Shown: positions 4,378 through 51,905, counted from the stretch's first letter. The stretch: DNA of 64,000 nucleotides from Candidatus Pacebacteria bacterium CG2_30_36_39 (GCA_001873435.1 MNZB01000004.1:307004-371003); one strand, 5' to 3'. Numbers and translations: made by a program. The notes: a model not told the origin generated them from the sequence alone.

Positions 4378-6612
4378 GTGATACAATTCTTCCTATCTAT
4401 GGACAGCCACTATGATCACATTTCAACTGAACCCAAGCTTTATGAAACCTGGGAAAAGTCTGGTGCTTTCTCACCAAAAAAAACTGATAAATCAGCAAAA
4501 ACATTCACTATAATGATGCCTCCTCCTAATGCCAATGATCCGCTGCATATAGGACACGCAATGTTTTTAACCGTCGAAGACATTCTAATTCGCTATCATC
4601 GCATGTTGGGTGACATAACTCTTTGGTTGCCAGGAACAGATCATGCTGGAATTGAGACGCAATTTGTTTTTGAAAAAAAACTTAAGAAAAAAAATCAGAG
4701 TAGATTTGAATTTGATCGAGAGACTCTTTACAAAATGATTTGGGATTATGTTCAAGAAAATTCTTCCGTAGCTGTCGAACAAATGAAAAAAATTGGTGCT
4801 AGTGCAGATTGGACTAGATTTACTTTTATGCTTGATGAAAAGGTTGTTAAGCAAGTTCTAGCTAGTTTCATCAAGCTCCATCAAGATTCTTTGCTATATA
4901 GAGACGAACAGCTGGTTAATTACTGTACTCAATGTGGAACTAGTTTTTCTGATCTGGAAGTAGTGTATGTTGACCAAAATTCACCACTTTATTACGTAAA
5001 ATATCCTTTGGTAGAAAATCCACGGGAATTTATAACTGTTGCTACAGTTAGACCAGAACCTATTTTTGCAGACACTCACCTAGCAGTTAACCCAGATGAT
5101 AAAAAACATAATTATTTAATTGGCAAAAAAGTTTTAAATCCCCTTACAAATGAAGAAATGGAAATTATTGCCGATGAATTTGTTGATCCAGAATTTGGAA
5201 CTGGTATTGTTAAACTAACTCCAGCCCATGATGCTAATGATTTTCAGGTGGCCAAAAAACACAATCTACCAATACATCAAGCTATAAACCTTGAGGGAAA
5301 AATAACTGCCAAAGGTGGAAAATATGCTGGTTTAAGAGTTAAAGCTGCAAGAGAAAGTGTTGTTAATGATCTACAAGAAAAAGGCTTAATAGAAAAAATT
5401 GATGATAAATATAACAATAGAGTGGCTGTTTGTTATCGCTGTCAAAAACCAATAGAACCATTATTGCTCCCACAGTTTTTTGTAAAAGTTAAACCCCTTG
5501 TTGAGCCAATTTTAAATGACTTAAAAAATGAAAAGTTTCATGTTTATGGAGCTGGACATGACAAAATCCTTAAACACTGGTTGGAAAACTTAAGAGACTG
5601 GAATATTTCTCGCCAAATTGTTTGGGGAATAAGAATTCCAGTTTGGTATTCAGTAACAGAAAATCCAGACATTGTGGTTAGTTTTCTAACAACAGATAAA
5701 AATAAAATAACTGGAAACATCAAAAGTGTTTTAGAACAAGGATTTACTGTTGAACAAATAAATAATGGCTTACAAGAATTAAGAGCTCCTATTCAAGCAA
5801 ATTTTGTTGTCAGCACCTCTAGCCCTGGTGTTGATTATTTACAAGAAACAGATACTTTTGACACTTGGTTTAGCTCTGCTCAATGGCCTTTTACAACTCT
5901 AAAAAAGAACGGAGATGAGGACTTTAAACAATTCTATCCCACCCAAGTGATGGAAACAGGATACGACATTCTCCCCTTCTGGGTTATGCGCATGCTCATG
6001 ATGGGAAAATATATTACTGGTGAACTGCCTTTTTCCAATATTTATCTCCATGGACTTGTTAGAGACCAAAAAGGACAGAAGATGAGTAAGAGTAAGGGAA
6101 ATGTGGTCAATCCCCTAGTTATAGCCGAAAAATATGGATCTGACGCTCTTAGAATGGCTCTAGTAATTCGTTCGTCAGCCGGTTTAGACAAATCAGTTGG
6201 AGAACCAGACTTTAAAGCTATGCGTAATTTCTCCAACAAGCTTTGGAATGCATCAAGATTTGTTCTTGAACATTTAGATCTTTCTCAAGAAGGAGATGTT
6301 AAAACAAACGAAAATTTCATTAATAAACTAAATGAAATTTCTAAAACTATTACTAAAAATTTAAATAACTTTCAAATTGGTTTGGCTGCAGAAACTAGCT
6401 ATAACGAATTTTGGCATTGGTTTTGTGATGAACAAATAGAAATTACTAAAACAGGAAAACTTGGGGGCAAAGAGCTTTTACATGGATTGAAAGTTTTTAT
6501 TGCCCTACTCCACCCATTTGTGCCATTCGTAACAGAAGCAGTCTGGCAAGAAATGAGACAAAAACAATTGGTTGAAACCGATTTATTAATTACTACTTCC
6601 TGGCCTAGTTAA
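4378..6612 (+). CDS. valS: Class I aminoacyl-tRNA synthetase, most likely valyl-tRNA synthetase. It is compact at 744 aa.
   Basis: HIGH motif PLHIGHA, KMSKS motif QKMSKSKGNV, and ValRS-like FWVMRM and GLVRDQKGQKMSKS segments. The real start may be the Met at about 4399. Confidence 0.7.
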   Translation: MIQFFLSMDSHYDHISTEPKLYETWEKSGAFSPKKTDKSAKTFTIMMPPPNANDPLHIGHAMFLTVEDILIRYHRMLGDITLWLPGTDHAGIETQFVFEKKLKKKNQSRFEFDRETLYKMIWDYVQENSSVAVEQMKKIGASADWTRFTFMLDEKVVKQVLASFIKLHQDSLLYRDEQLVNYCTQCGTSFSDLEVVYVDQNSPLYYVKYPLVENPREFITVATVRPEPIFADTHLAVNPDDKKHNYLIGKKVLNPLTNEEMEIIADEFVDPEFGTGIVKLTPAHDANDFQVAKKHNLPIHQAINLEGKITAKGGKYAGLRVKAARESVVNDLQEKGLIEKIDDKYNNRVAVCYRCQKPIEPLLLPQFFVKVKPLVEPILNDLKNEKFHVYGAGHDKILKHWLENLRDWNISRQIVWGIRIPVWYSVTENPDIVVSFLTTDKNKITGNIKSVLEQGFTVEQINNGLQELRAPIQANFVVSTSSPGVDYLQETDTFDTWFSSAQWPFTTLKKNGDEDFKQFYPTQVMETGYDILPFWVMRMLMMGKYITGELPFSNIYLHGLVRDQKGQKMSKSKGNVVNPLVIAEKYGSDALRMALVIRSSAGLDKSVGEPDFKAMRNFSNKLWNASRFVLEHLDLSQEGDVKTNENFINKLNEISKTITKNLNNFQIGLAAETSYNEFWHWFCDEQIEITKTGKLGGKELLHGLKVFIALLHPFVPFVTEAVWQEMRQKQLVETDLLITTSWPS

Positions 6613-6637: not shown

Positions 6638-7096
6638 ATGTTTCAATTCATTGCTCTTAATTGGTTAATTGTTAGGCTTATTTTCTCTCTCCTGAGTATG
6701 GGTTTAGGATTGGTTCTACGGCGCTTTTTTTTACATAAAAAGTTAGCTCCAGTAAATCTAGTTCTAACTTTTGGAGTGTTTTTCTTGGTTGTTTTCACAC
6801 TATTAACCCCAAGTTTTTCACCAAAAGACCAACCAATCCCAGATAATATCTTTTTGGGGAACAATTCAAATCAATCAACTCTACGCGGCCTTTCCTTAAC
6901 TAGTTTGGAGGCAAAATATTTATTAACTAAAAATGAAGATTTTTTATTAAATAATCAAATCTTTCCTCAAGATTTACTATTAAACTTATCAAGTTTGGCT
7001 AGAATTTCTTTAGAAAACGAAAAAGCGGACCAATTCTTAGAAATGGCCCGCTATATTTCACCTAATAATGAGGTTTTTAAACCTCGTTCTGAATAG
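6638..7096 (+). CDS. Hypothetical membrane protein.
   Basis: 152 aa ORF with an N-terminal hydrophobic segment. No recognisable motif. Confidence 0.3.
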   Translation: MFQFIALNWLIVRLIFSLLSMGLGLVLRRFFLHKKLAPVNLVLTFGVFFLVVFTLLTPSFSPKDQPIPDNIFLGNNSNQSTLRGLSLTSLEAKYLLTKNEDFLLNNQIFPQDLLLNLSSLARISLENEKADQFLEMARYISPNNEVFKPRSE

Positions 7097-11189: not shown

Positions 11190-11609
11190 CTATAAACCTT
11201 GACTATCCATAGCTTGATTTGCTAATAAATCAGCTTGAGTATTTTTATGACGTAATACATGGTGAAAAAAAACAGAGTAGGGGAGAGAGTTTATTATTTC
11301 CCAACCTTGTTGAGCTAATTCTCTCAGTCTTGGTTCTTTTATTTTCCAATTCTTTTGCATTTGTTCTACAACTAGTTTGGAATCTAAATAAAAATCAACT
11401 TGTTCAAGTTTGTTATTGTCAGAAAAATCTTTAAGCCAAGTCAGTGCATTTATTAAAGCAAGATATTCAGCTTCATTGTTGGTTTTTTCACCAAAATAAA
11501 TCGCTTTTTCAAAAATAACTTCAGCCAATTGATTTTCTACCACAACACCACCACCTGAAATACCAGGATTTCCTCTAGAACCACCGTCTGTGTGAATTGA
11601 AAGTTTCAT
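11190..11609 (-). CDS. rnhA: Ribonuclease HI.
   Basis: MKLSIHTDGGSRGNPGISGGGVVV...NNEAEYLALINAL: the RNase H catalytic motifs. Confidence 0.9.
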   Translation of the reverse strand: MKLSIHTDGGSRGNPGISGGGVVVENQLAEVIFEKAIYFGEKTNNEAEYLALINALTWLKDFSDNNKLEQVDFYLDSKLVVEQMQKNWKIKEPRLRELAQQGWEIINSLPYSVFFHHVLRHKNTQADLLANQAMDSQGL

Positions 11610-11618
11610 TTTAAAATC

Positions 11619-12080
11619 TTATTTTTTGCGAATTACTAACACTCTACCAAAGGTATCGTCTTCGGAAAAAGTTTCAATATCGCTAAAATCAGGATTTTCA
11701 CCAATTGCAGAATGAACTAAAAAACGCTCATAAGAATTTAGATCATTAAAAACATATTCTCTTCCAGATTCGCGAACTTTCTCAGCAATCTGTAGAGCTT
11801 TTTCTTGTAATCTATTTTCTCTTTCTTTTCTGTAGCCGTTAATATCAATTACCAAACGTTGATTTTCTTCAATTTCTTCTTGATGTGCCAGGCGAACTAA
11901 AATTTCTAAAGATTCTAGTGTTTCACCCTTGGCGCCAATAAAATGTTTGGCTTTTTCTTCTGGTAAAACAATATTTAAATATATTTTTTCACCTTCAGCT
12001 GTTTCTTCAAAATTAATTTCACTAGCTTCAACTCCATAGAAGTCGAAGATTCTAATAATTCTATCTTTCATTTTTTGCAT
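11619..12080 (-). CDS. jag: Jag/KhpB-like RNA-binding protein with KH and R3H domains.
   Basis: 153 aa. KH-like IGAKGETLESLE and C-terminal R3H-like LNSYERFLVHSAI. Lies immediately downstream of yidC and overlaps it by 20 nt. Confidence 0.75.
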   Translation of the reverse strand: MQKMKDRIIRIFDFYGVEASEINFEETAEGEKIYLNIVLPEEKAKHFIGAKGETLESLEILVRLAHQEEIEENQRLVIDINGYRKERENRLQEKALQIAEKVRESGREYVFNDLNSYERFLVHSAIGENPDFSDIETFSEDDTFGRVLVIRKK

Positions 12081-12819
12081 ATTTGCTCACCAATCTTTGA
12101 TAATAAATTTGTATTCCGCCCCAGCCAGAGACATAATATTGTTGAATGATACTAGTGACTGTACTGATAACCCAATAAAGTGCTAACCCAGAAGGAAAGC
12201 TGGCTGCTATTACACCCATCATGATAGGCATAATAAAAAGCATTTGTTGTTGCATTGTTGCAGCCATTTCTGCCGTGTTTTCTTCTTTTTTATTAGCTTC
12301 TTGGACTTTTTTAAGTTTACTTTTATTCGGCACTATATCTCTAACTTCGGCGCCAGGAGAGATCATTAAAGACAAAATAAGCTGAGTAACTCCAGATAGA
12401 ATTGGCAAAATATATGTTTTATCTGGCTGACTTACGTTAAACCACAAAAAATTGAGATTAAAACCATTAATTGTAGCTCCATCTAGAAAAGAGATCATTG
12501 CTCTATAAAGCACGATTATGACAAAAAATTGAATTAATTGAGGAATACATCCTGCGATTGGATTAGCGTTGTATCGTTTATAAAGCTCCATTTGAGCTTG
12601 TTGTAGGCCTTTTTTGTCTTTGCCAAACTTTTCTGTTAACTTTTTAAGTTCTGGTTGAAGTTTTTGTAATTGTTTTTGAGCTTTAATGGAAGAGTTTGTT
12701 AAGGGAAAAAGAGCAAACTTGGTTAATAGAGTAAAAGCAACAATTCCCCATCCAAGACTACCTAAGGTTTCGCTTAAAAAAATTAAAAATCGTACACTTT
12801 GTTCAATAAGATATCCCAT
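12061..12819 (-). CDS. yidC: Membrane protein insertase YidC/Oxa1, short form.
   Basis: 252 aa. Multi-pass. LTKFALFPLT...QKLQPELKKL...YKRYNANP: the YidC signature region. Confidence 0.85.
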   Translation of the reverse strand: MGYLIEQSVRFLIFLSETLGSLGWGIVAFTLLTKFALFPLTNSSIKAQKQLQKLQPELKKLTEKFGKDKKGLQQAQMELYKRYNANPIAGCIPQLIQFFVIIVLYRAMISFLDGATINGFNLNFLWFNVSQPDKTYILPILSGVTQLILSLMISPGAEVRDIVPNKSKLKKVQEANKKEENTAEMAATMQQQMLFIMPIMMGVIAASFPSGLALYWVISTVTSIIQQYYVSGWGGIQIYYQRLVSKYAKNER

Positions 12820-12828
12820 TAGATTCCT

Positions 12829-13035
12829 TTACCAACAAGTAATTAGGCGTAAAAACCCCTTTATCGATCCAACGATTGTACCATGTCTTTTAATTTCCGC
12901 TTGAGTATATCTACTACAGGTTGGAGTATGTTTACATTCACTACTAAAACCAAAAATAGTATATAAAATTTGATGTTTCCAAAAACCTACAATTTGATAA
13001 ATACCAAATATGCCAGGAGAATATTCTTTTTTCAT
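12829..13035 (-). CDS. yidD: Membrane protein insertion efficiency factor YidD.
   Basis: 68 aa with C..P.CS.Y...A...HG and a terminal ...RLITCW, as in the YidD family. Confidence 0.8.
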   Translation of the reverse strand: MKKEYSPGIFGIYQIVGFWKHQILYTIFGFSSECKHTPTCSRYTQAEIKRHGTIVGSIKGFLRLITCW

Positions 13036-13397
13036 TTTTGAGCTAAGACTTCTGTTTTGAAGTTTTTCATCTCTACTACAAAGACTTCTTTTTCTCTGGA
13101 AAAGTCTTTAAAAACTTTAATAATACAACGAAGTTTTAAATTTTGTAATAAATCCGAAGAAATCTCGTTATAAATCAATCTTTTGAGTTTATTTCTTTGG
13201 GTTGCCATTAAAATATTTTTTTTAGGAACAACGACAGAAAATTGATTGTTTTCTATTGAATTTTTAAAATCAAAATAAGCTGAAAAAAACTTTCCACGCC
13301 AGGTATTTCCTCGATAGACTTCTTTATTCGAGATATCTTTTAAATTTAACTTATTTTTTTTAGGTAACATAATAAAAGCCTGTAACTCAGACTTCAT
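13032..13397 (-). CDS. rnpA: Ribonuclease P protein component.
   Basis: 121 aa basic protein between rpmH and yidD, with 4-nt overlaps typical of this operon. Confidence 0.75.
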   Translation of the reverse strand: MKSELQAFIMLPKKNKLNLKDISNKEVYRGNTWRGKFFSAYFDFKNSIENNQFSVVVPKKNILMATQRNKLKRLIYNEISSDLLQNLKLRCIIKVFKDFSREKEVFVVEMKNFKTEVLAQK

Positions 13398-13425
13398 TGT
13401 ACAAAAGAAATAGAGAAGAATTAAA

Positions 13426-13581
13426 CTAAACTTTCTTAAGAACAGTGAGTTTTTTACGACCTTTATTGCGACGTCGTTTAAGTACTAAACGACCGTCATG
13501 AGAGGCCATTCTCTTTAAGAAGCCATGAGTGCGTAATCTTTTTTTCTTTTTAGGGTTCCAAGTGCGTTTTGTCTTTGCCAT
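13426..13581 (-). CDS. rpmH: 50S ribosomal protein L34.
   Basis: Not in the ORF track. Reverse translation gives [51 protein letters not shown], a textbook L34. Confidence 0.9.
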
Positions 13582-13604
13582 AGGCGAGGATTATATCATA
13601 GTTT

Positions 13605-14714
13605 TTAAGAGCTAGTTGTTCTGAAAGGCATAATTACATATAGGAAATTTGGCTCGTCAGGAATTTGAAAAGCAGCTGGTTTTAGACTCTCGTTCATTTT
13701 AAAGATTAATTCACCTTCTTTTTTCTTGTTTAAAAAATCCATTAGATAAACAGCATTAAAAGCTATCTCCTGACTTTCTCCAGAATATTTTACTATCATT
13801 TCCCCCTGGTAATCCCCAGTAGCTGGTGAATTAGCTTTAAATCTTAAAATATCTTTGTCTAGTTCTAGTTTTACGATATTTGAACTATCTTTAGCAAAAA
13901 GAAAGGCTCTTTTAATTTGAGTTTGGAATTCGCCAAAGTCAGTTTTTATTTCTATGGCAAATTCTTCAGGAATTATTTTTTTATATGGTGGATATTCTCC
14001 TTCTATCAAGCGAACGTAGATTTCTATTCCATCAATCATAAAAAGAACTTGTTTAAGCTCCTCAGCTACTCTGAAAGCAACTTTTTCTTGCTCTACTTGG
14101 TTCATCATCCTAAACACTTCATTTAGAGCTTTTACTGGTATTAAGAAGTTTTTATTTAAATTAGGAACTTCGCCTTCATAACTTAATGCTGCCAATCTAT
14201 AGCCATCAGTTGCAGCAATTTCTAGTTTTTTATCCTGAAAAGAGAAGAGTAACGAGGTTAAAACAGGTCTCGTTTGATCTTGTGCTGCAGCAAATGAAAT
14301 ATAAGTATCTACTTTTTGTAATAAATCTTTTGATAATGTAAATGTTTCCCCATTTACCTCTGGAAATTGAGGATATTCCTCAGCGCTTTGATAGGGGAGT
14401 GTACTTTTGCTTTTTTCATATTTAACTAAAATTGAGGTATCTGATTGAATAAATTCAACGTCTCCGGCTGAAAAAGAAAAAATTAAACTTTTAAATATTT
14501 CACCAGGAACGACACATTCACCAGTTTCTTCAACTATTGCTGGAATAGTACTTTTAATTCCTAAATATAAATCTGTTGCTGCTAAAGTTAATTGATTTCC
14601 TTTAACCTGTAAGTAAACCGATGAAAGAATTGGCAGTTGTGGTTTACTTGGAATTGCTTTTTGCAAACTAGTTAAAGCAGTTTTTAAATTTTCTTGTAAA
14701 ACTTTAAATTTCAT
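13605..14714 (-). CDS. dnaN: DNA polymerase III beta sliding clamp.
   Basis: 369 aa, MKFKVLQENLKTALTSLQKAIPSK.... Its position next to dnaA supports the call. Confidence 0.9.
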   Translation of the reverse strand: MKFKVLQENLKTALTSLQKAIPSKPQLPILSSVYLQVKGNQLTLAATDLYLGIKSTIPAIVEETGECVVPGEIFKSLIFSFSAGDVEFIQSDTSILVKYEKSKSTLPYQSAEEYPQFPEVNGETFTLSKDLLQKVDTYISFAAAQDQTRPVLTSLLFSFQDKKLEIAATDGYRLAALSYEGEVPNLNKNFLIPVKALNEVFRMMNQVEQEKVAFRVAEELKQVLFMIDGIEIYVRLIEGEYPPYKKIIPEEFAIEIKTDFGEFQTQIKRAFLFAKDSSNIVKLELDKDILRFKANSPATGDYQGEMIVKYSGESQEIAFNAVYLMDFLNKKKEGELIFKMNESLKPAAFQIPDEPNFLYVIMPFRTTSS

Positions 14715-14900
14715 ATTTTAGGTTCTGTCTTTACTATCTATATATATATGTTGTTGTAGTAATAATAGAAGCTGTTGATAAGTGGGAAAGCCGCAAATAA
14801 TACTCAAGTATTTTCATAAAAGTTAATGTTAATTAACTTGGCTAACCAGTTCTTCATAACTTTGTGTATTGTGCCGTAAAACTTTGTTAAAAGCGATAGG

Positions 14901-14974
14901 TTTTTCACAATAGCTCAAAGTTATTAATAGTTATCCAGAGCCTTTCCACAAAGTTATTAACTGAGTTATCCACA
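14901..14974. promoter_or_regulatory. Cluster of DnaA boxes in the dnaN-dnaA intergenic region, a candidate oriC element.
   Basis: Perfect TTATCCACA at 14966-14974. TTATCCAGA at 14931-39, CTTTCCACA at 14942-50 and TTTTTCACA at 14901-09 all lie in the same orientation within about 75 bp, amid AT-rich sequence. Confidence 0.6.
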
Positions 14975-14985
14975 ATTGTTGATAA

Positions 14986-16497
14986 CTATATCTTAGAGAT
15001 AGCAGTTAATGACATTCTAAGAGCTGAAATATCTTGTTGTGTCAAGCTTTCTTCTTTTATCTCACTCTCTATTTTATTAATAGCATGTAGAACACTAGTA
15101 TGATCTCTACCCGAGAACCACTTACCAATTTCTTCTAACGGCATATTAAGCTCTTTCCTCAAGAGATACATAGCAGTATGTCTAGCTCCAACAATGTCTT
15201 TAATTCTTCTTTTACCTTTAAGAGCACTTTGTTTGATTCGATAATGATCAGCCACTGTTTTGATAATATCTTGAGGCTTAACACGAAGATTTGGAGAAAT
15301 TGTAGGAGCTTCTGTTTTAAGTAATGATTGAATTAATTCTTCAGTAATTGTTCTTTGTTTTAATTCAACCTCTGATCTTAAAAGTTTAATAATACCCTCA
15401 ATTCTTCTAGCTCCATCTACTTTTGAAGAAATTAATTGTGCCAAATTCATTGGCAAATCTAAATGATTTGCTTGAGCTTTAATTAAAAGGATCGCGGTGC
15501 GAAGTTCAAAAGAGGGTTGTTGAATATCAATCATTAAACCAGCCTCAAATCGAGATCTTAATCTAGATTCTAGTAGATTGATTTCATGAGGAGGGCGGTC
15601 AGAAGTAAGAATAATCTGAGAAGCTTGTTTGGTTAGTGCATTAAAAGTGTGAAAGAATTCTTCTTGAACAGCATTTTTTCCAGCCAAAAACTGAACATCA
15701 TCGATTAAAAGTACCTGGGTATTTCTATATTTTTGTTTAAAATCAAAAGCTCTTTTCTTTTGGATAGCATTAACAATTTCATTTGTAAATTCTTCACCAG
15801 TGCAATAAATAACGTTTGTTTCTGGATTTTGTTTGAGAATATTGTTAGCAATCGCTTGCATTAAATGAGTTTTACCCACTCCAACTCCTCCATATAAGAA
15901 AAGTGGGTTGTAGGCAGCTCCAGGGTTGTTTGAAACGGCTGTGGCAGCAGCATGGGCCATCTCATTAGTAGTTGAAACAGCAAACGTTTTAAAGGTGTAA
16001 TCTAGTCTCAGGCCAATTCTTTTGGCTGCTGTTTTTGATCTATCTTGAAAGCTGGCTTGCAAAGTGTGGGCGGAAAAAAGCTCATCAACAGTAGGAGAGG
16101 TTGAGTTTCCAGAGCTAAAACCATGTAATTGCTGAGTTTTTACTGGCTGAGATGGCAATAAATGAGCTGTTTGACTCAAATTATCAACACTTGATGAAGC
16201 ATTGGGTGTAAATGGTGTGCCTACAATGAATTCTATTTCCACTTTTTTATTTAATTGAGCTTCTAATGTTTCCTTTATTTGGGTATAGAGATTTTTTTTG
16301 AGATTTGTAGCATGAAAAGCAGTGGGGCAAGTAATTGTAGCTAGTGCTTGATTTTGTTGATCAACCTCAACTTTTGTTAATGGATTAGAAACAATCCAGG
16401 TGTTAAAAACAGCGGGAGTAAGTTGTGTTTTTAGAGTTTCTTGAGTGGCCTTCCAGACAGTATTAATTTCATTTTCCTCTAACGTATGAGTAAACAT
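14986..16497 (-). CDS. dnaA: Chromosomal replication initiator protein DnaA.
   Basis: 503 aa. AAA+ Walker A GGVGVGKTHLMQAIAN, box VII, and a C-terminal DNA-binding domain LRKELNMPLEEIGKWFSGRDHTSVLHA. Confidence 0.95.
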   Translation of the reverse strand: MFTHTLEENEINTVWKATQETLKTQLTPAVFNTWIVSNPLTKVEVDQQNQALATITCPTAFHATNLKKNLYTQIKETLEAQLNKKVEIEFIVGTPFTPNASSSVDNLSQTAHLLPSQPVKTQQLHGFSSGNSTSPTVDELFSAHTLQASFQDRSKTAAKRIGLRLDYTFKTFAVSTTNEMAHAAATAVSNNPGAAYNPLFLYGGVGVGKTHLMQAIANNILKQNPETNVIYCTGEEFTNEIVNAIQKKRAFDFKQKYRNTQVLLIDDVQFLAGKNAVQEEFFHTFNALTKQASQIILTSDRPPHEINLLESRLRSRFEAGLMIDIQQPSFELRTAILLIKAQANHLDLPMNLAQLISSKVDGARRIEGIIKLLRSEVELKQRTITEELIQSLLKTEAPTISPNLRVKPQDIIKTVADHYRIKQSALKGKRRIKDIVGARHTAMYLLRKELNMPLEEIGKWFSGRDHTSVLHAINKIESEIKEESLTQQDISALRMSLTAISKI

Positions 16498-16663: not shown

Positions 16664-18712
16664 CTATTCAGTTGGGGGAGAGTAGTCATTAATTGTGTAA
16701 TAACCAGCGTATTGTTTTTGTTTGGCTTTTTGTTCTGTTTCGGCTGCTAGTTTTTCATCTTCATCTTGAATTAGTTGCTTTTCTTGAGGAGCTTGAATAG
16801 GTTCTAACTGTTTTTCTTGTTTTGGTTTGAAAAGTGAAGAGAAGTCTTGTTTTTCTTTCTTTTTAACTTCATCTTCTGCTTCTTTTTGTAATTGAAATTG
16901 CTTGTTTTCCGCCCTTTGTTTGAGAACCTCTTCTGGATTTGTTGTAATAACTTCATGTTCTTCATCGCTAGCCACAACTCTTAAAGCTACGTGGTTTTGT
17001 CCTGCAAAAAATACACCCTCTCCAACGTCAGACGAAACCAGCAATTGTCTTTCTCCCTCAGATAAATAAAATGTTTCAGCTAAAACAGGGATTGAAGCGC
17101 TTGATTGCTTCATTAAAAATTGGATAGAAGCATTACTGACAATAGCTTTTCCATAATCATTATGTAAAAAGTCCTCAACATCTTGAGTAATAGTAGTAAT
17201 TCCTAAATAATATTTACGTGCTCTTTTAACCATAGAGTGAATAAAAGAGGCACTGTCTTTATGCTTCATAAAATACCAGGCTTCATCAATCACTAAAATT
17301 CTACGTTTTAAATTCTTTTTTACTCTAGTCCAAATAAAATCTAGGATAATAAACATAGCAATAGGCCTAAGAGCTTCTTCCATTTCTTTTACAGAAAATA
17401 CTGTAAAAGGATTGGTAATATTCATATTGGATGGTTTATCAAAAATACCTCTAAAGGAACCGGTGATAAACTTTTCAAGTCTAGCAGCAATATCATTAGC
17501 ATCATCATTTTCCATACCAATTAGTGCTTTATATAGATCTTCCATTAGAGGTGGTTCGTTTGTTTGAGTTACTGGATCTGGAGTAATGCCCTTGGCTTTA
17601 TAAGCAGCAATTAAAGCTCTATCTAATAAGGCTTCTTGTTGGGCAGTCATTTCTCCCAACATGACTTTTAGTAATCCGTGTAGGGTAATAACTTTTTGTC
17701 CAAGCTCATTTTCTCCCTCCTCATACATAGCAGAGAGATCAAATGGATTTAGTTTTGTTTCAGAACCAAAGGTGAAGTTAATATATTCTCCGCCAACTTT
17801 TTTAGCTAACTCCTCATATTCGTGTTCTGGGTCAAGAACAATTACTTCAGCATCAAACATTAATTGACGAATAATTTCCAATTTAACAGTATAAGACTTG
17901 CCTGCACCAGATTTAGCGAAAATAACCATGTTGGCATTTTCCATTTTAAAACGATCAAAAATTACCAATGAATCATTATGTTCATTAATTCCATAAAGAA
18001 TTCCAGTTTCCATGGTTAATTCTGAAGAAGTAAAAGGAAAGGTTGTGGCTAGTGACGTAGTATCCATGTTTCTAGTAATCATTAGCTTATCTTTACCCAT
18101 TGGAAGAGTGGTCTTAAAGCCTTCATCCATTTGCAAAGTTGCCTTTTTAGAAACAATAAGCAGAGAACCCAACATTGATTGAATGTTTTTGGTTATTTTA
18201 TCTAAAAACTCCATACTTGGAGCATTCAGAGTTATATATAGACCAAATTGAAAAAATCTCTCTGATCCAGCTGCTAGTTGTTCTCGAATGGACCTAGCAT
18301 CACTTAATTTAATCTCAGTATTAATATTACTAATTTTTCCAGATCTGATGTCAGATTGGATTTCTGCCTCCATCTCAGTAATTTTTCTTTTTAAGTTATC
18401 TAAAACCTCAGAAGAGTCAACGGGATAAACAAACATTGAGATGTTTGCTTGACTAGGAAAGTTAATAAGAGGAGATAACCAGTTGGCTGGAACTGTACGA
18501 GGGTAGCCGGCCACAAAAAGAGTACGGGTGTAAGTAGAGTTAATTTGTTGATAGGTAAAATCAACCTCAATTGCTTCAGGAGCAATAATGTCTTGAATTG
18601 TTACTAGACCTTGAGAAAACTCTTTGATCTTTTCCATCTCTTTTTGTTCTTGAGTTGGTTCTGAAGAGTTATTCGTGGTTTTTTTGCTAAAAAATGGCAA
18701 CTGAAAGGGCAT
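16664..18712 (-). CDS. VirB4/TrsE/PrgJ-family T4SS ATPase, core and C-terminal ATPase portion.
   Basis: 682 aa. ...TRTLFVAGYPRTVPANWLSPLINF...ISMFVYPVD...LKRKITEMEA; Walker A FAKSGAGKSYTVK; Walker B ILVIDEAWYFM. Matches the Gram-positive conjugative VirB4 layout. Confidence 0.85.
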   Translation of the reverse strand: MPFQLPFFSKKTTNNSSEPTQEQKEMEKIKEFSQGLVTIQDIIAPEAIEVDFTYQQINSTYTRTLFVAGYPRTVPANWLSPLINFPSQANISMFVYPVDSSEVLDNLKRKITEMEAEIQSDIRSGKISNINTEIKLSDARSIREQLAAGSERFFQFGLYITLNAPSMEFLDKITKNIQSMLGSLLIVSKKATLQMDEGFKTTLPMGKDKLMITRNMDTTSLATTFPFTSSELTMETGILYGINEHNDSLVIFDRFKMENANMVIFAKSGAGKSYTVKLEIIRQLMFDAEVIVLDPEHEYEELAKKVGGEYINFTFGSETKLNPFDLSAMYEEGENELGQKVITLHGLLKVMLGEMTAQQEALLDRALIAAYKAKGITPDPVTQTNEPPLMEDLYKALIGMENDDANDIAARLEKFITGSFRGIFDKPSNMNITNPFTVFSVKEMEEALRPIAMFIILDFIWTRVKKNLKRRILVIDEAWYFMKHKDSASFIHSMVKRARKYYLGITTITQDVEDFLHNDYGKAIVSNASIQFLMKQSSASIPVLAETFYLSEGERQLLVSSDVGEGVFFAGQNHVALRVVASDEEHEVITTNPEEVLKQRAENKQFQLQKEAEDEVKKKEKQDFSSLFKPKQEKQLEPIQAPQEKQLIQDEDEKLAAETEQKAKQKQYAGYYTINDYSPPTE

Positions 18713-46608: not shown

Positions 46609-48075
46609 GTGCCTAAAAAACATTCTCAATTTGTCTGCCAACAGTGTGAGGCGGCTTTTCCTAAATGGCAAGGTCAGTGTAGTGCTTGTGGGGCTTGGAA
46701 TACTTTAGTTGAAGAAGCTATTGAAGTAACTGTGAATGCTAAGGGAAAAACTACAACCCTAAGAAATGAAACAGATTTTTTAATTAGTTATCCAGAAGTA
46801 GAGCTGTCAGAAACCGCCAAAAACCGTTTTTCTACAACTTTGTCTGAGTTGGATAGGGTGTTGGGTGGAGGATTGGTTCCAGGAATGGTTTCTTTGGTTG
46901 GCGGAGAACCAGGAATTGGTAAGTCCACATTGCTAACACAGGTGGTGGTTGGTTTATTAAACAAAGATATTGCTTTTGCAGAACAAAACTTAACCCAAAA
47001 ATCTACTAAATCTTCTATGACTGGAAAACCGAAAACTTGGTTGAGTGAGGCGCCAATAGTGTATGTTGCTGGTGAAGAAAGTCCATCTCAAATATCACTT
47101 AGAATCAATCGATATTTACAAAAAGAACATAAAAATAGTTCAATAGATAAAGTCAAAATAGACCCGAAGAATATTTTAAATAAATTGTTGTTCGTAACAT
47201 CCACTCAGGTAGAAGAGATTGTTCAGGTTATGGCAAAACATAAACCAAGATTGGTAATCATTGATAGTATCCAGACTATCACTACCAATGAGCTAACAGG
47301 AGCCAGTGGAAGTGTAGGTCAGATTAGAGAATCAGCAGAAAAAATAACTCAAATGGCTAAGGCTTTTCATATTCCAGTCTTTTTTATTGGTCATGTAACC
47401 AAGGATGGCATTATTGCTGGACCCAAGGTTCTTGAACATATTGTTGATGCAGTAGTTGAAATTAGTGGTGAAAGATCAGGACAATTAAGACTAGTTAGAG
47501 CTTTAAAAAATCGCTTTGGTGCCACTGACGAGGTTGGTGTTTTTCAACATGATGATTATGGTTTGGCTGAAGTAACTAATCCTAGCGAGCTATTTTTGGA
47601 ACAAACTGAGCTTGGAGTTCCAGGTAGTGCAACTGTTGGAGTTATGGAAGGAACTAGGCCACTATTGGTTGAAGTTCAGGCTTTGGTTACATATTCTCAA
47701 CTAGCAATGCCTCGTAGAGTGGGTAGAGGAATAGAATTATCTAGAATTCAAATTTTGGCTGCTATCTTACAAAAACATGCCAGGTTACCATTGGAATCAA
47801 ATGATGTGTTTTTGAATGCTGCAGGTGGATTTACTATTAAAGAACCAGCGGTTGATCTTGGTTTGGCAGTGGCAATTGCTAGCTCATTAAAGAACAAGAA
47901 AATATCACAAAAAGCTATTTTTATCGGTGAAGTAGGGCTTTTAGGTGAGATAAGAAAAGTTAGTTTTTTGGAGAAAAGAATCAAAGAAGCCAAACGTTTA
48001 GGCTTTACAGAAATATATTCAAGAGAAACACACAAAACTGTTAGAGAAGTATTGAAAGATTTGGATTTACTTTAG
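46609..48075 (+). CDS. radA: DNA repair protein RadA/Sms.
   Basis: N-terminal C4 zinc finger CQQCEAAFPKWQGQCSACGAWNT, RecA-like Walker A LVGGEPGIGKSTLLTQV, and a Lon-protease-like C-terminal domain. Confidence 0.9.
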   Translation: MPKKHSQFVCQQCEAAFPKWQGQCSACGAWNTLVEEAIEVTVNAKGKTTTLRNETDFLISYPEVELSETAKNRFSTTLSELDRVLGGGLVPGMVSLVGGEPGIGKSTLLTQVVVGLLNKDIAFAEQNLTQKSTKSSMTGKPKTWLSEAPIVYVAGEESPSQISLRINRYLQKEHKNSSIDKVKIDPKNILNKLLFVTSTQVEEIVQVMAKHKPRLVIIDSIQTITTNELTGASGSVGQIRESAEKITQMAKAFHIPVFFIGHVTKDGIIAGPKVLEHIVDAVVEISGERSGQLRLVRALKNRFGATDEVGVFQHDDYGLAEVTNPSELFLEQTELGVPGSATVGVMEGTRPLLVEVQALVTYSQLAMPRRVGRGIELSRIQILAAILQKHARLPLESNDVFLNAAGGFTIKEPAVDLGLAVAIASSLKNKKISQKAIFIGEVGLLGEIRKVSFLEKRIKEAKRLGFTEIYSRETHKTVREVLKDLDLL

Positions 48076-50273
48076 TCTCGTTTTTTAGAATAGCGTTCGC
48101 GGCTTACTTTAATGACTTTGTCTTTATTCATATTACTACTCTTAGCTAAAGCTAAAGTATGGGCTGGAAATGGTTTTGAGATAACATTATCAATAGAGAT
48201 TCTATTAATAATTTGATGTTTTTCAAGAGAAACCAATTCTTCTGGAGTGTAATGTTCACCAAACTCTCGACTAAATACTTGGGCATCTTCTGAACCCATG
48301 ACAAAACTTGCAGTACTTCCACAGTTACCAAAAATAGCTTTTTGTACTTCTTCTGGAATCTGAGCAATATATTGATTTGCTAAGGTTAAGTTAAGACGAT
48401 ATTTACGAGCTTCGGAAAGAATTTTAATAAATGCTTCAGTAGCAAAGTTTTGGAATTCATCTACGTAAAGATAAAAATCTCGACGTTGTTCTTCTGGAAT
48501 ATTTACTCTGGCCATAGCAGCAAGTTGAATTTTAGTAATCATCATGGCGCCTAAAAGAGTAGCATTATCTTCACCCAATTTTCCTTGTGAAAGATTAACT
48601 AGGAGTATTTTTCCCTCATTCATAATGTCTTCAATATCAAAAGAACTTTTGTGAGCATTAACAACATTACGAATTAAAGGAGATGAGGTAAACTGTCCAA
48701 CTTTATTTAAGATAGAAGCGATTGATTCTGTACGCAATCTATCTTGCATCTTGTTGTATTCATCAACCCAATAACTTTTAAGAATGGGATCTTGAAGATT
48801 TTCAACATATTTTTCACGAAACTTAGGATTGGTTAAAAGCTCTAGGATGTCAGAAAGCCTGGCATTATCACTGGTTAAAAGAGTTAAAAGGGCATTGCGT
48901 AGGATATATTCCAAACGAGGACCCCAAGAATATCCGTAGAGTTTTTGAAAAATAGAGATGATTCCAGAAGCAATTAGTTCTCGATGAACTACATTTTTAC
49001 CTTCAAAAAGATTTATTTGAACTGTTCTCTCTGGATCACTAGGATCAAAATAAATAACGTCATTAATACGACGAGCTGGGATGTAGTTGAGAAGAGTTTC
49101 TACTAGATCTCCATGTGGATCAATAACACAAATACCAGCTCCATTTTTTAAGTCGTTGATAGCCATATTTGCTAGTAGGGTTGATTTACCAGTGCCTGTT
49201 TTGCCAATGACATACATATGGCGTCTACGGTCTACACTTCGTAGTCCATATTTAACACTACGATTTTTGAAAGTAGTTTCAGCAAAAACATTAGTGTTAT
49301 TTTTTAATTCAGGATCGGTGTCTTTGGTAATAATGGGTAGGTTTTCTGGTGGTTCGCCCAAGAGATTTTTACCCCAAGCAATGTTTGGGATAACCTCTAG
49401 ATCTTTGTTTGGTAAGTGATATAGAGTGGCTAATTCATCTAAGGCTAAGTGAAAGCGAGGGGAGCGCAAGAATGAGCGTTGTTGCATCATTTTTATAAAA
49501 TGGGTTTTGAAGACATAGTTTCGGCGCAGTACCAAGAGATTTCCTTCGCTTTTAGAAATTGCGTTATAGGTAGCAGCTAAGGTTTCTAAGATTAATTCAC
49601 TACGCTGGGTAGATTCAGTACGGATAGCAATTTTTATGCCAACTTTTAATGATTCTTTTTTGAGTTTTTCTTCAATAATAGATTTTTGGCGGTGATATCC
49701 AGATACGCTATCATCACTAGACTTATTCTCTATTTGTTGCCATCCTTTACGCTTCCATCCTTCTTTATCCTGAGAAGCTACATATTGAATGTGGATTACG
49801 TCATTTGGTTGGCTTTTGGAAAGAGAGGCTAATAGAGAGGCCAAGGGATCAACTTCTTTGAAGTCGGTGTAGGTTTTTAAGGGTAAATATTCTGCATTAG
49901 CAAGTTTTAAGTTGCCGGTTTTAACAAATGAAGGGGTAATGAGTTTGCCGTTAACATCAAAGAAATCTAAGAGAGGATCTTCTAGTGGTTCTGTTATCAA
50001 TGATTCTGGATAACTGGCAATTAAACTACCTCTGAGGTATTCAGCTAAACGTTCTGGAATATACATTAGAAATCTAATTACTTGATCACGAACTACAATT
50101 TCTAGGCTGAAATGTTCTTCTTTGCCAATGAGTTTATAAAAAATATTGTTATAAAGTTTTGGTAAAGTAGAATAAAGTTGAACAGCTGTTTCAGGAGTAT
50201 GTTCAGCATCGCGACCAGTTCGAATTTCAATTAATGTATGTGGCGTCATAAAACTAGCCTTCATTATATACAA
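48072..50273 (-). CDS. TraG/TraD/VirD4-family (T4SS coupling-protein-like) P-loop ATPase with no N-terminal membrane anchor.
   Basis: 733 aa. Walker A HMYVIGKTGTGKSTLLANMAINDL..ICVIDPHGD. C-terminal ...FYLYVDEFQNFATE...ARKYRLNLTLANQYIAQI...FGNCGSTASF resembles the TraG-D_C / TrwB-like region. No hydrophobic N-terminal helices. Confidence 0.55.
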   Translation of the reverse strand: MYIMKASFMTPHTLIEIRTGRDAEHTPETAVQLYSTLPKLYNNIFYKLIGKEEHFSLEIVVRDQVIRFLMYIPERLAEYLRGSLIASYPESLITEPLEDPLLDFFDVNGKLITPSFVKTGNLKLANAEYLPLKTYTDFKEVDPLASLLASLSKSQPNDVIHIQYVASQDKEGWKRKGWQQIENKSSDDSVSGYHRQKSIIEEKLKKESLKVGIKIAIRTESTQRSELILETLAATYNAISKSEGNLLVLRRNYVFKTHFIKMMQQRSFLRSPRFHLALDELATLYHLPNKDLEVIPNIAWGKNLLGEPPENLPIITKDTDPELKNNTNVFAETTFKNRSVKYGLRSVDRRRHMYVIGKTGTGKSTLLANMAINDLKNGAGICVIDPHGDLVETLLNYIPARRINDVIYFDPSDPERTVQINLFEGKNVVHRELIASGIISIFQKLYGYSWGPRLEYILRNALLTLLTSDNARLSDILELLTNPKFREKYVENLQDPILKSYWVDEYNKMQDRLRTESIASILNKVGQFTSSPLIRNVVNAHKSSFDIEDIMNEGKILLVNLSQGKLGEDNATLLGAMMITKIQLAAMARVNIPEEQRRDFYLYVDEFQNFATEAFIKILSEARKYRLNLTLANQYIAQIPEEVQKAIFGNCGSTASFVMGSEDAQVFSREFGEHYTPEELVSLEKHQIINRISIDNVISKPFPAHTLALAKSSNMNKDKVIKVSRERYSKKRD

Positions 50274-50307
50274 AGATCAGGTGCAAAGGGGAGAGCAGAG
50301 TCCAAAA

Positions 50308-50679
50308 TTAATGAATTTCAGCTTTGGTTAGCGCGTTTAGAAAGTCAGGCATTTCAGTGGAGATTGTTGATTGGACGCCAAAGATATCTCTAAAGATAGC
50401 CATGCGCATAATTTCATAAAGATACATGGGATCCCAGTAAATATTTAAGTATTTCAAAGCTAAATCAATCATTGTTTCAGCTTGTTCCAGATTTTGACCC
50501 ATTCCAAGTGGTTCCATGTTTGTGCCTGGTAGACCTTCTGTTTGGGGTAAGTGAAATAGATATTCTGCTTCTTGTCCATTTTCAGCCTCTCTTTCAATTA
50601 GCTGTACTTTGACGCCATTTTTTTCTATTTCTTTGATAATTTTTCCAAAAATTGGTTTTTCCATAAGCTTATTATACAC
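50308..50679 (-). CDS. Hypothetical small acidic protein, co-directional and adjacent upstream partner of the VirD4-like ATPase.
   Basis: 123 aa ORF. The likely start is MEKPIFGK. No motif recognised. Confidence 0.3.
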   Translation of the reverse strand: MYNKLMEKPIFGKIIKEIEKNGVKVQLIEREAENGQEAEYLFHLPQTEGLPGTNMEPLGMGQNLEQAETMIDLALKYLNIYWDPMYLYEIMRMAIFRDIFGVQSTISTEMPDFLNALTKAEIH

Positions 50680-50816
50680 GATTTGAGTTATTATCTAGTT
50701 TTCCTCATTATTTTTATGGTTGTTGAAAACTAATATATGTAGTCTGGTTATTCCTTAAATATATTGTTATGAGATATGAATAAATATGCATAAAAATAAC
50801 TATAAGATAGCAAATG

Positions 50817-50846
50817 TTGACAAAAATAGCTTAAAAGAGTTATAGT
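50817..50846 (+). promoter_or_regulatory. Strong sigma-70-like promoter that would drive the downstream non-coding region.
   Basis: TTGACA at 50817-22, a 17-18 nt spacer, then TTATAGT at 50840-46. Confidence 0.5.
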
Positions 50847-50851
50847 GAATT

Positions 50852-51205
50852 ACGTCAAAATAAATACCCGAAAGAGTTCAGATGGTTTTGGAAGAACATT
50901 TGGACATGGAAGATCGAGTAGGGGATTTAAAAGACCTTAAAATCGGAAGAAAAAAAATCCACCGATTTGTAGATTCCAGAACATGGCAGGCAGAACTACA
51001 AAACGGTGGATCACAGTGCAACATTACCGCTGGAAGACCACGAATAATATTGCTCAGGTATTTCTCACGTTACTCCTCAGAGTGTGTGAGAGATGATCTG
51101 AACATAGCATTTTCGTCGGGTACGGTAAACTAGATATTTATGATTATTACTATACTTTTCTATATAGTAATGATCGAGGTTGGTGTATAATACGGGTTAT
51201 ATTTG
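50852..51205 (+). ncRNA. Candidate RNase P RNA (rnpB) or other structured ncRNA.
   Basis: Region of higher GC. Contains CACAGUGCAACAUUACCGCU (compare the RNase P P8-P9/CR-II AGUGCAACAG...ACCGCC). About 100 nt downstream, UCGGGUACGGUAAACUAG (compare CR-III ACGGUAAACUCC). A 13-bp inverted repeat lies at 51141-51174. No convincing P4 AAGUCCGG sequence was seen. Bounded by a promoter upstream and a strong terminator downstream. Confidence 0.4.
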
Positions 51206-51207
51206 TG

Positions 51208-51275
51208 AAAAGCGTTGGGTTGAAGTTCGGTCGGTTGGGCAGGCTACCGAACTTCAGCTTAACGCTTTTTTTATT
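51208..51275 (+). terminator. Strong rho-independent terminator.
   Basis: AAGCGUUGGGUUGAAGUUCGGU-loop-ACCGAACUUCAGCUUAACGCUU followed by UUUUUUU: a stem of about 22 bp. Confidence 0.7.
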
Positions 51276-51452
51276 GACTAAATTTATTTTTTTTAAGCTC
51301 ATAATTTTTTTTATTTGACACAAATTGATATAATAACAACCTGTCTAGAAATCTTTAGGCACATTTGCTGTGTAAAATAAGATTTTTAGACATTTTTTAA
51401 GCTCGTTAACATGAGAAATTGTTTACAAAAATTAAGGAAACTTTAATTGATG

Positions 51453-51556
51453 CCTGGTCTATCTTAGATAGTCTTAGTCTGGAGAAATATATTTTTAATT
51501 CTTTAGACTGAGGCTATCTATTTGCTCTCACGTGAGTGAGAGGTTATAGCTGGTCT
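51453..51556. promoter_or_regulatory. Cluster of palindromic and direct repeats, a putative operator region, upstream of the GC-rich orphan gene.
   Basis: Perfect palindrome CTATCT-T-AGATAG at 51458-70. Inverted repeat CTCTCAC-GTGA-GTGAGAG at 51525-42 with a CACGTG core. Direct repeat CTGGTCTA at 51453-60 and 51549-56. Confidence 0.4.
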
Positions 51557-51576
51557 ACACCAATTCAAGGAGTTCA

Positions 51577-51882
51577 ATGATGAAAATTGTTGACATGCAA
51601 GATTTCTTCACCAGGCTTGTAAAAGATGTGGAGACAGTCGAAGCGCTACGCGCTAAGATTCGTCCCATGCTTGAGGATGAAGGATCAACCGACTACGTTC
51701 AGCCAGACGTCGAAACCAATTGCACCTGCGAGCGCAATCTACGTGCTCACCTTCAGGACATTATGGACGACGACCAGATTGCCCGGCTTGCGCTGGGGCT
51801 GGAAGAAGAGAACGAAGAAGGTTGGTTGGAGGATTTGCAGGCTCAATTCCCCAACTTAAAGATCTTTGTCATCGGCCCATAG
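51577..51882 (+). CDS. Orphan acidic protein encoded in an islet of about 50% GC; likely horizontally acquired.
   Basis: 101 aa, MMKIVDMQDFFTRLVKDVETVEALRAKIRPMLEDEG.... GC content is far above the flanks, so other frames are also open. Followed by a perfect 13-bp hairpin. Confidence 0.45.
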   Translation: MMKIVDMQDFFTRLVKDVETVEALRAKIRPMLEDEGSTDYVQPDVETNCTCERNLRAHLQDIMDDDQIARLALGLEEENEEGWLEDLQAQFPNLKIFVIGP

Positions 51883-51905
51883 CCAAAAGAATCGCGCTCT
51901 AACAC

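Follow-up and report, generated by a model that had tools for sequence, protein, structure and literature searches.

A gene of a structured small non-coding RNA occupies positions 50817-51272 (+ strand) of the window, i.e., of the whole 64,000-nt stretch of DNA analysed here, which comes from Candidatus Pacebacteria bacterium CG2_30_36_39 of Crystal Geyser groundwater. The RNA represents a new family of a familiar kind, the bacterial small structured RNA, and was found as a conserved ncRNA at more than 140 genome and metagenome loci. The family occurs in Pacebacteria/Woesebacteria-type CPR bacteria (Microgenomates group), ultra-small organisms that include groundwater Pacebacteria, and is restricted to them as far as seen. 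Since many other genomes keep the region in both sequence and position, the observation is above chance, and the near-consensus promoter, the three covarying helices and the unchanging 11-nt loop together argue that the RNA is under strong selection. The original prediction had described a promoter-to-terminator non-coding unit that was either a candidate rnpB or a different structured RNA. The unit was recovered, with a promoter at 50817-50846 and a hairpin with a U-run at 51208-51272, and the second of the two identities was upheld by the covarying helices and by the position of the family outside Rfam 15. Very probably, the locus encodes a conserved ncRNA other than rnpB. Judged from sequence signals, which also underlie its predicted ends and abundance, the transcript would measure about 420 nt in the window organism, and RNAs of 85-580 nt are predicted for relatives.

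The features of the region are as follows.

46609-48075, +, radA
48072-50273, -, VirD4/TraG-like ATPase (DUF8128-DUF87-TrwB)
between the TraG-like gene and the RNA unit, -, 118-aa ORF
50817-50846, +, sigma-70-type promoter TTGACA-18 nt-TATAGT (11 of 12 consensus positions)
50853-50946, +, 5' leader, lineage-specific, unconserved and unstructured
50882-51133, +, 83-aa ORF, not a gene
50955-51013, +, H1 hairpin AAAUCCACC...GGUGGAU, present only in part of the family
51018-51053, +, M2 hairpin GCAACAUUA-CCGCUGG-AAGA-CCACGAA-UAAUAUUGC
51053-51101, +, M3, a variable hairpin (MFE fold)
51122-51131, +, ACGGUAAACU, of which the family keeps only GUAAA (51125-51129), together with an AUCUU-like stretch downstream
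51140-51175, +, M4, an AU-rich, lineage-specific hairpin AUGAUUAUUACUAUA...UAUAGUAAUGAUC (MFE fold)
51208-51272, +, M5 hairpin of about 25 bp followed by U7, family core and intrinsic terminator
after the RNA unit, all +, in this order: 101-aa ORF, sortase, HAD hydrolase, rho, M23 peptidase, obg

Promoter, modules and terminal hairpin of the RNA

The body of the unit is relatively GC-rich, as had been claimed, with 35-42% G+C against 24-30% in the flanking spacers. The + strand of the whole unit folds better than its shuffles (z = -8.6), and so does 50947-51207, from which the terminator was left out (z = -5.1). The RNA is modular and consists of a leader, an optional H1, M2, variable hairpins around GUAAA, and the universal M5.

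The strong -35/-10 promoter of the original prediction was confirmed, being near-consensus in the window and kept in relatives: at 48 of the 59 genome loci the RNA is preceded by a homologous promoter, TTGAC-N16-18-(G)TTATAcT, which sits 36-533 nt upstream of the terminal loop. Transcription would start at about 50853. Promoter-like sites were few in the surrounding DNA, with 2 observed in 50300-51900 vs 5.3 expected. A candidate internal promoter, TGTATAAT (51184-51191), lies 5' of M5 and is kept only in the closest relatives. At the promoters of the RNA (loci L009-L081, e.g., L081 at 5750-5800; window 50780-50846), TTGAC is immediately preceded by a shared TATAGG, and about 30 nt further upstream these promoters also have a TATAAGAC box in common. 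The two may form an UP-like element or a regulator site.

Conservation begins at about 50950 and not at the promoter. The leader shares 24-36% identity with the closest relatives compared to 84-87% for the core, and its first 94 nt fold no better than shuffles (z = -0.6). In three loci (L009, L010 and L073), the promoter directly abuts AAAAAAUCCACC, i.e., the next element without any leader.

Covariation analysis with homologous regions, which had been proposed as a check of the original prediction, supported the helices of M5, M2 and H1. The H1 hairpin was found in 23 distinct homologues, which belong to the window's wider lineage. Over its 16 pairs, 86% of the cells are paired as compared to 75% in shuffles and 23-39% in slid controls, with compensatory changes at 9 pairs. 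Its apical loop carries GGCAGGC at 50985-50991, and the loop pattern, (A/U)GGCAG(G), echoes the M5 loop, GGCAGG being common to both. M2, which takes in most of CAGUGCAACA...ACCGCU, occurs in most family members, always 150-335 nt upstream of M5; it has an invariant internal loop, and its invariant nucleotides, CGCUG and CAC.A.UAA, surround a small variable stem-loop. Among 57 distinct sequences, 98.9% of the M2 cells are paired vs 92.9% in shuffles, none of 500 of which reached as high a value; the covarying pairs are 8/48 (GC/AU), 11/45 (UA/AU) and 23/33 (GC/AU).

The middle of the RNA is much more variable. At the position of M3 the presence of a hairpin is kept but neither its sequence nor its length, relatives having unrelated hairpins of other lengths there, and other hairpins are likewise found in relatives at the position of M4. 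Between these variable hairpins sits UGUAAA(U/C)..AUCUU, with the family consensus uGUAAAuUnnAUCUu around GUAAA. Neither MAFFT/RNAalifold nor a pair-scan gave a reliable consensus structure for this middle part, because the hairpins there vary in length. The shortest forms (L019, L072, L076, L054 and L043) consist of the promoter, a leader of 36-133 nt and M5 only, with RNAs of about 85-180 nt.

The M5 hairpin, with the stem arms AAAAGCGUUGGGUUGAAGUUCGGU...ACCGAACUUCAGCUUAACGCUUUUUUU in the window, bears an apical loop of 11 nt, GUUGGGCAGGC (51234-51244), which is invariant or nearly so. Compensatory changes were found at 23 of its 25 pairs in the 59 genome loci, where 93.5% of the M5 cells are paired vs 78.9% in shuffles (0 of 500 as high) and 37-52% in the slid-partner controls. 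The M5 covariance model detected one copy in the window and scored 72.3 bits on the + strand vs 44 on the - strand; this difference, together with the abundant G-U pairs, indicates that the + strand is the transcribed one. A terminator of about 22 bp had been claimed, and it was found as the 25-bp stem with U7. It was missed by a simple terminator scan because its loop is longer than 8 nt. Of 124 distinct M5 copies, 99 have a U-rich tail (at least 5 U among the first 8 nt beyond the stem), and since about 20% of the copies are without a clear U-run, some read-through into downstream genes is possible. The M5 hairpin presumably has two roles, i.e., terminator and functional handle.

RNase P-like motifs and other rejected identities

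The proposal of rnpB was based on details that are correct in themselves. The motif CAGTGCAACA is present at 51014-51023 and followed by ACCGCT at 51026-51031, and ACGGTAAACT is present at 51122-51131; each occurs once in the window (0.12 and 0.02 expected, respectively), and they lie 108 nt apart on the same strand, close to the claimed spacing of about 100 nt. The protein gene rnpA is also in the window (13032-13397, -; Pfam Ribonuclease_P, E = 3.6e-7). The stretches CAGUGCAACA...ACCGC and ACGGUAAAC match CR-II and CR-III of E. coli M1 RNA exactly and are similarly spaced. These 10-mer identities are specific to the window's lineage: in most relatives AAAAAAAGCAUUAUUA and UGUAAAUU stand in place of the two 10-mers, and the motifs decay there to GCAUUAUUA and UGUAAAU.

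The interpretation of the two motifs as an RNase P CR-II/CR-III signature did not hold, the first being part of a covarying helix and both decaying in relatives. Helix M2 opens with four pairs between the GCAA of CAGUGCAACA and UUGC (51050-51053), and in other lineages this helix reads GCAU/AUGC or ACAU/AUGU. In RNase P RNA, CR-II and CR-III are single-stranded joiners on either side of a conserved P11 helix. The CR-II-like motif is therefore not a single-stranded J11/12 but base-paired in M2 in the 57 sequences. A P11-like pairing, CAGUG/UACGG, has 4 of 5 pairs in the window and usually 1-2 of 5 across 72 relatives. In RNase P RNA, the long-range helix P4 is formed by CR-I (GGAAAGUCCGG) and CR-V (ACAGAA..GGCUUA). 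It was rightly stated in the original prediction that no canonical P4 could be identified; no CR-I/P4-like motif occurs in or beside the unit, and the 5' part of the unit, where CR-I is expected, is unconserved. A search for GGAAAGTCCGG with at most 2 mismatches gave 11 matches vs 7.2 expected, none of them inside 50817-51275, and a combined CR-I...CR-V regex found nothing credible in 1.7 Mb of loci.

Searches with Rfam 15 agreed with this. At the gathering score, cmscan detected no family, rnpB included, anywhere in the 64-kb window, nor any match in 133 kb of ten related loci. The RNase P models RF00010 and RF00011, which had been suggested as the decisive check, gave no match to the unit at E<=10, whether 50600-51600, the 266-nt slice 50945-51210 or the full RNA of the L061 homologue was searched. 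Divergent RNase P RNAs of circularised CPR genomes are known to escape default thresholds, but all of them keep many canonical features and could be retrieved with RF00010 at a lowered, 5-bit threshold (PMC8172020). The E<=10 cut-off used here is stricter than that threshold, so that scores below about 10-15 bits could escape.

A highly divergent RNase P RNA would have the size of this RNA (about 350-420 nt), would account for the two 10-mers that match CR-II/CR-III of M1 RNA at RNase P-like spacing, and would supply the rnpB that is expected in a genome with rnpA and was not detected elsewhere in the 64-kb window; the divergence of CPR RNase P RNAs also speaks in its favor. However, the unit is without P4, CR-I and CR-V, the models found no match even on the 266-nt slice, although the divergent CPR RNAs reported earlier were RF00010-detectable, and the RNase P-like features are not kept among relatives. 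Moreover, homologues of only about 85-130 nt, as in L019, L043, L054, L072 and L076, cannot be RNase P RNAs, the catalytic domain of which takes up at least about 200 nt, and the truly conserved and only universal element, M5, has no counterpart in RNase P. This identity is thus highly improbable, and the false rnpB candidate is removed from the annotation. The case also illustrates that exact 10-mer matches to conserved regions of RNase P can arise in an unrelated RNA. A circularly permuted RNase P, with M5 as the closed P1, was rejected as well, no CR-I-like motif being found after the terminator, and a CR-I-like string in L028 proved to be part of a GC-rich palindrome. Such palindromes (CCTGCCTGCGCAGGCAGG and similar) adjoin the RNA gene in L028 (5850-5910) and L163 (about 2400-2450), and one of them mimics the CR-I string of RNase P. 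The rnpA gene of the window belongs to a replication-origin neighbourhood at 11190-16497 (-), which comprises dnaA, dnaN, rnpA, yidC and jag (R3H) as well as a 139-aa RNase H/RVT_3-like gene; the cumulative GC-skew has its minimum at about 13-15 kb of the window.

An mRNA for the 83-aa protein (50882-51133) could be suspected, as an ORF that begins with ATG and is preceded at 5-6 nt by a weak AAGAG is located between promoter and terminator, and as gene callers annotated it in public assemblies. However, among 5.8 billion clustered proteins it has no homologue save an identical fragment, no Pfam match was found, and its start codon falls in the unconserved leader. The frame is broken by stops and 1-2 nt indels in the closest relatives (L006-L011, L009, L010 and L073), which are 84-87% identical over the core, and conservation tracks the helices rather than codons. 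The chance that the transcript serves as this mRNA is practically negligible; the ORF had already been judged unlikely to be coding, and conservation as a protein, named as evidence against a non-coding RNA, was not seen.

Several further identities were tried and rejected. A tmRNA or tRNA-like RNA was dropped, as ARAGORN detected neither in the window and the possible tag-like frame ends in HE and a stop. For the SRP, 6S, T-box and riboswitch classes there was no Rfam signal; at E<=10 only sub-threshold microRNA/sRNA hairpin noise appeared (in 1 kb, in the 266-nt slice and in the relative's RNA), and no GNRA/AGCA helix-8 motif was seen on inspection. A phage origin was not indicated either, since the 103 matches of a looser loop pattern to viral contigs were about the number estimated by chance and none forms an M5-like hairpin. 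In L012, L019 and L025 (at about 6850-6910), the traG-like mRNA contains CACCUGCCCAAC (His-Leu-Pro-Asn codons), which is complementary to the M5 loop; an antisense target was rejected, as the complementarity is found in only these 3 loci and is probably due to chance. No described CPR ncRNA of this kind was found in the literature, the coverage of which was incomplete.

Genomic position and possible function

The loci compared were 20 kb or less in length. Of the 76 genome loci collected via the neighbouring traG-like gene, more than 50 contain the core in the same place and orientation (nhmmer). An unbiased scan of metagenome contigs with TCGGNNGTTGGGCAGGCNNCCGA yielded 89 loci, 85 of which form the hairpin, and among loci collected via rho alone, M5 was present in the gap in all four with DNA (63-78 bits). 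The general order is radA, an optional reversed traG-like gene (with or without the 118-aa ORF), the RNA, optional genes, and rho-M23-obg, and in the mapped loci the RNA is always co-oriented with rho. The gene directly downstream varies (rho, sortase, the 101-aa ORF or others), and 0 to about 5 kb of variable genes, such as the 101-aa ORF, sortase and HAD, may separate rho from the RNA; examples with up to several kb inserted are L030, L045, L136 and L149. If rho is the next gene, a TTGACA-N17-(G/A)ATAAT promoter begins only a few nucleotides beyond the M5 stem. L163 has the RNA after radA but no rho within 10 kb. Loci with a traG-like gene in another context are without the RNA, and the RNA is also found at loci with no traG-like gene nearby.

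The genomes of CPR bacteria are tiny and contain hardly any non-coding DNA, and to our knowledge almost nothing is known of the regulatory RNAs of these bacteria. In the present family, more than 140 loci have retained some 300-900 bp without genes at a constant position, and the analysis yields a ready covariance model and a defined motif.

Some other features of these loci were noted. The 101-aa ORF of the window (51577-51882) has about 53% G+C vs about 36% for the genome, no Pfam match, and a homologue in one related locus only (L011); it looks recently acquired. The spacer at 51290-51570 is AT-rich and contains an extended -10-like TGATATAAT and a hairpin of about 75 nt (51456-51530), features which seem lineage-specific. 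Chromosomal genes for a VirB4-like ATPase (16664-18712) and the VirD4/TraG-like ATPase (48072-50273) are both present in the window, and since dozens of related genomes have the latter beside radA, it would seem to be a core gene and not one of a mobile element. The Rho proteins of the clade (L013, L014, L079, L123 and others) differ in length, with about 420 to more than 600 aa, because of low-complexity extensions at the N-terminus.

It is on the whole likely that the RNA is a stand-alone, strongly transcribed small RNA, the invariant loop of which is a predicted binding site, probably for a protein. The insertions on both sides, the genes' own promoters downstream and the sRNA-sized minimal forms argue for an independent gene and not a leader, and an unvarying 11-nt loop on a freely varying stem, repeated in H1, looks like a recognition site. 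A protein partner is favored because no conserved complementary sequence was found. For the mechanism, we tentatively suggest a trans-acting, protein-binding mode, a possibility to be taken seriously rather than a probable one. Transcription would start at the RNA's own near-consensus sigma-70 promoter and end at the conserved 25-bp M5 with its U-run; the abundantly made, stand-alone RNA would then act in trans, with the invariant M5 loop as the recognition site, most likely for a protein, and in the window's lineage H1 would offer the GGCAGG motif a second time. However, the M5 loop could equally pair with another RNA or act during transcription, and a cis role would agree just as well with the unchanging orientation relative to the rho block.

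This cis role is the main rival, and we consider it unlikely. The RNA would serve the downstream operon, the last genes of which are rho-M23-obg, as a leader, attenuator or insulator: transcription from the strong promoter would be stopped at M5, and a factor that recognises the loop would tune read-through into sortase/rho; alternatively, Rho/Nus factors could act at the copies with weak U-tracts, or M5 could shield the abutting rho promoter. Such a role is consistent with the constant arrangement, in which the RNA precedes (sortase)-rho-M23-obg in the same orientation regardless of the genes on its other side, with the next promoter, the -35 box of which often begins only a few nucleotides from the M5 stem, and with the roughly one-fifth of copies without a good U-run. 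On the other hand, rho and other downstream genes have promoter-like sites of their own, insertions of several kb between M5 and rho are tolerated, and in L163 there is no downstream rho to be regulated. The short forms leave no room for a sensor domain, and the terminator stems of riboswitch-type leaders are normally without invariant loops. Still less probable is a housekeeping ribonucleoprotein RNA, clade-wide and highly expressed in CPR bacteria of the Microgenomates group, in which the GGGCAGG loop would dock an essential protein, e.g., of the transcription-termination/Rho network, beside which the RNA is always encoded, and the optional T-loop-like module could contact tRNA or another structured RNA. 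If this were true, a large uncultured lineage would have in it a new core RNA and not an accessory regulator. An element that functions as DNA, e.g., a recombination or transfer site beside the traG-like gene or a mere bidirectional terminator, is very improbable. The long inverted repeat between an A-run and a T-run, a VirD4/TraG-like gene adjoining it in many loci, and variable gene content immediately downstream would suit such an element, but read on the opposite strand the many G-U pairs become A-C mismatches (72 vs 44 bits), a conserved promoter reads into the hairpin, and the element is present without a nearby traG-like gene; moreover, neither the invariant 11-nt loop nor the conserved M2 and H1 would be expected of a plain terminator. 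A stand-alone small RNA, ended by M5 and recognised at its loop, remains the preferred reading.

Comparison with known systems

The RNA resembles type A RNase P RNA (RF00010; E. coli M1) in its length and in being a promoter-to-terminator RNA gene, but it differs in the lack of the P4 pseudoknot, CR-I, CR-IV, CR-V and any model score, in the pairing of its CR-II-like stretch, and in the poor conservation of the P11 equivalent. The likeness of this region to the S-domain of RNase P is probably due to UGUAA(A), which fits the 5-nt U-N-N-R-A pattern of T-loop modules such as the tRNA T-loop, J11/12-J12/13 of RNase P and the distal region of T-box stem I. However, no second, interdigitated T-loop could be defined here, the short members are without the element, and the T-box and RNase P models of Rfam did not match the T-loop-like region.

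Leaders upstream of rho, as in the rho autoregulation of E. coli and B. subtilis, are comparable in lying upstream of and co-oriented with rho. In contrast to these, rho has its own promoter after the hairpin here, and other genes are often found in between; no rut-like C-rich tract or boxA was seen in the RNA.

RNAs of the CsrB/RsmZ type and, more loosely, 6S RNA share a strong promoter of their own, an intrinsic terminator and the absence of coding potential. The CsrB/RsmZ type likewise carries a purine-rich motif in apical loops (here GGCAGG, twice in the window's variant) and varies in length around a constant motif, but it has many copies of that motif vs one or two here, and the GGA motif of CsrA is not the one present. 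The window RNA differs from 6S RNA in having neither a central bubble nor pairing of its 5' and 3' ends, and no Rfam model of either group matched it. Finally, the RNAfold prediction suggests a likeness to hairpins of the boxB/nut type with their GNRA-like pentaloops, as the M5 loop could close on U-G pairs to a G-N-R-N-A pentaloop (GGGCA).
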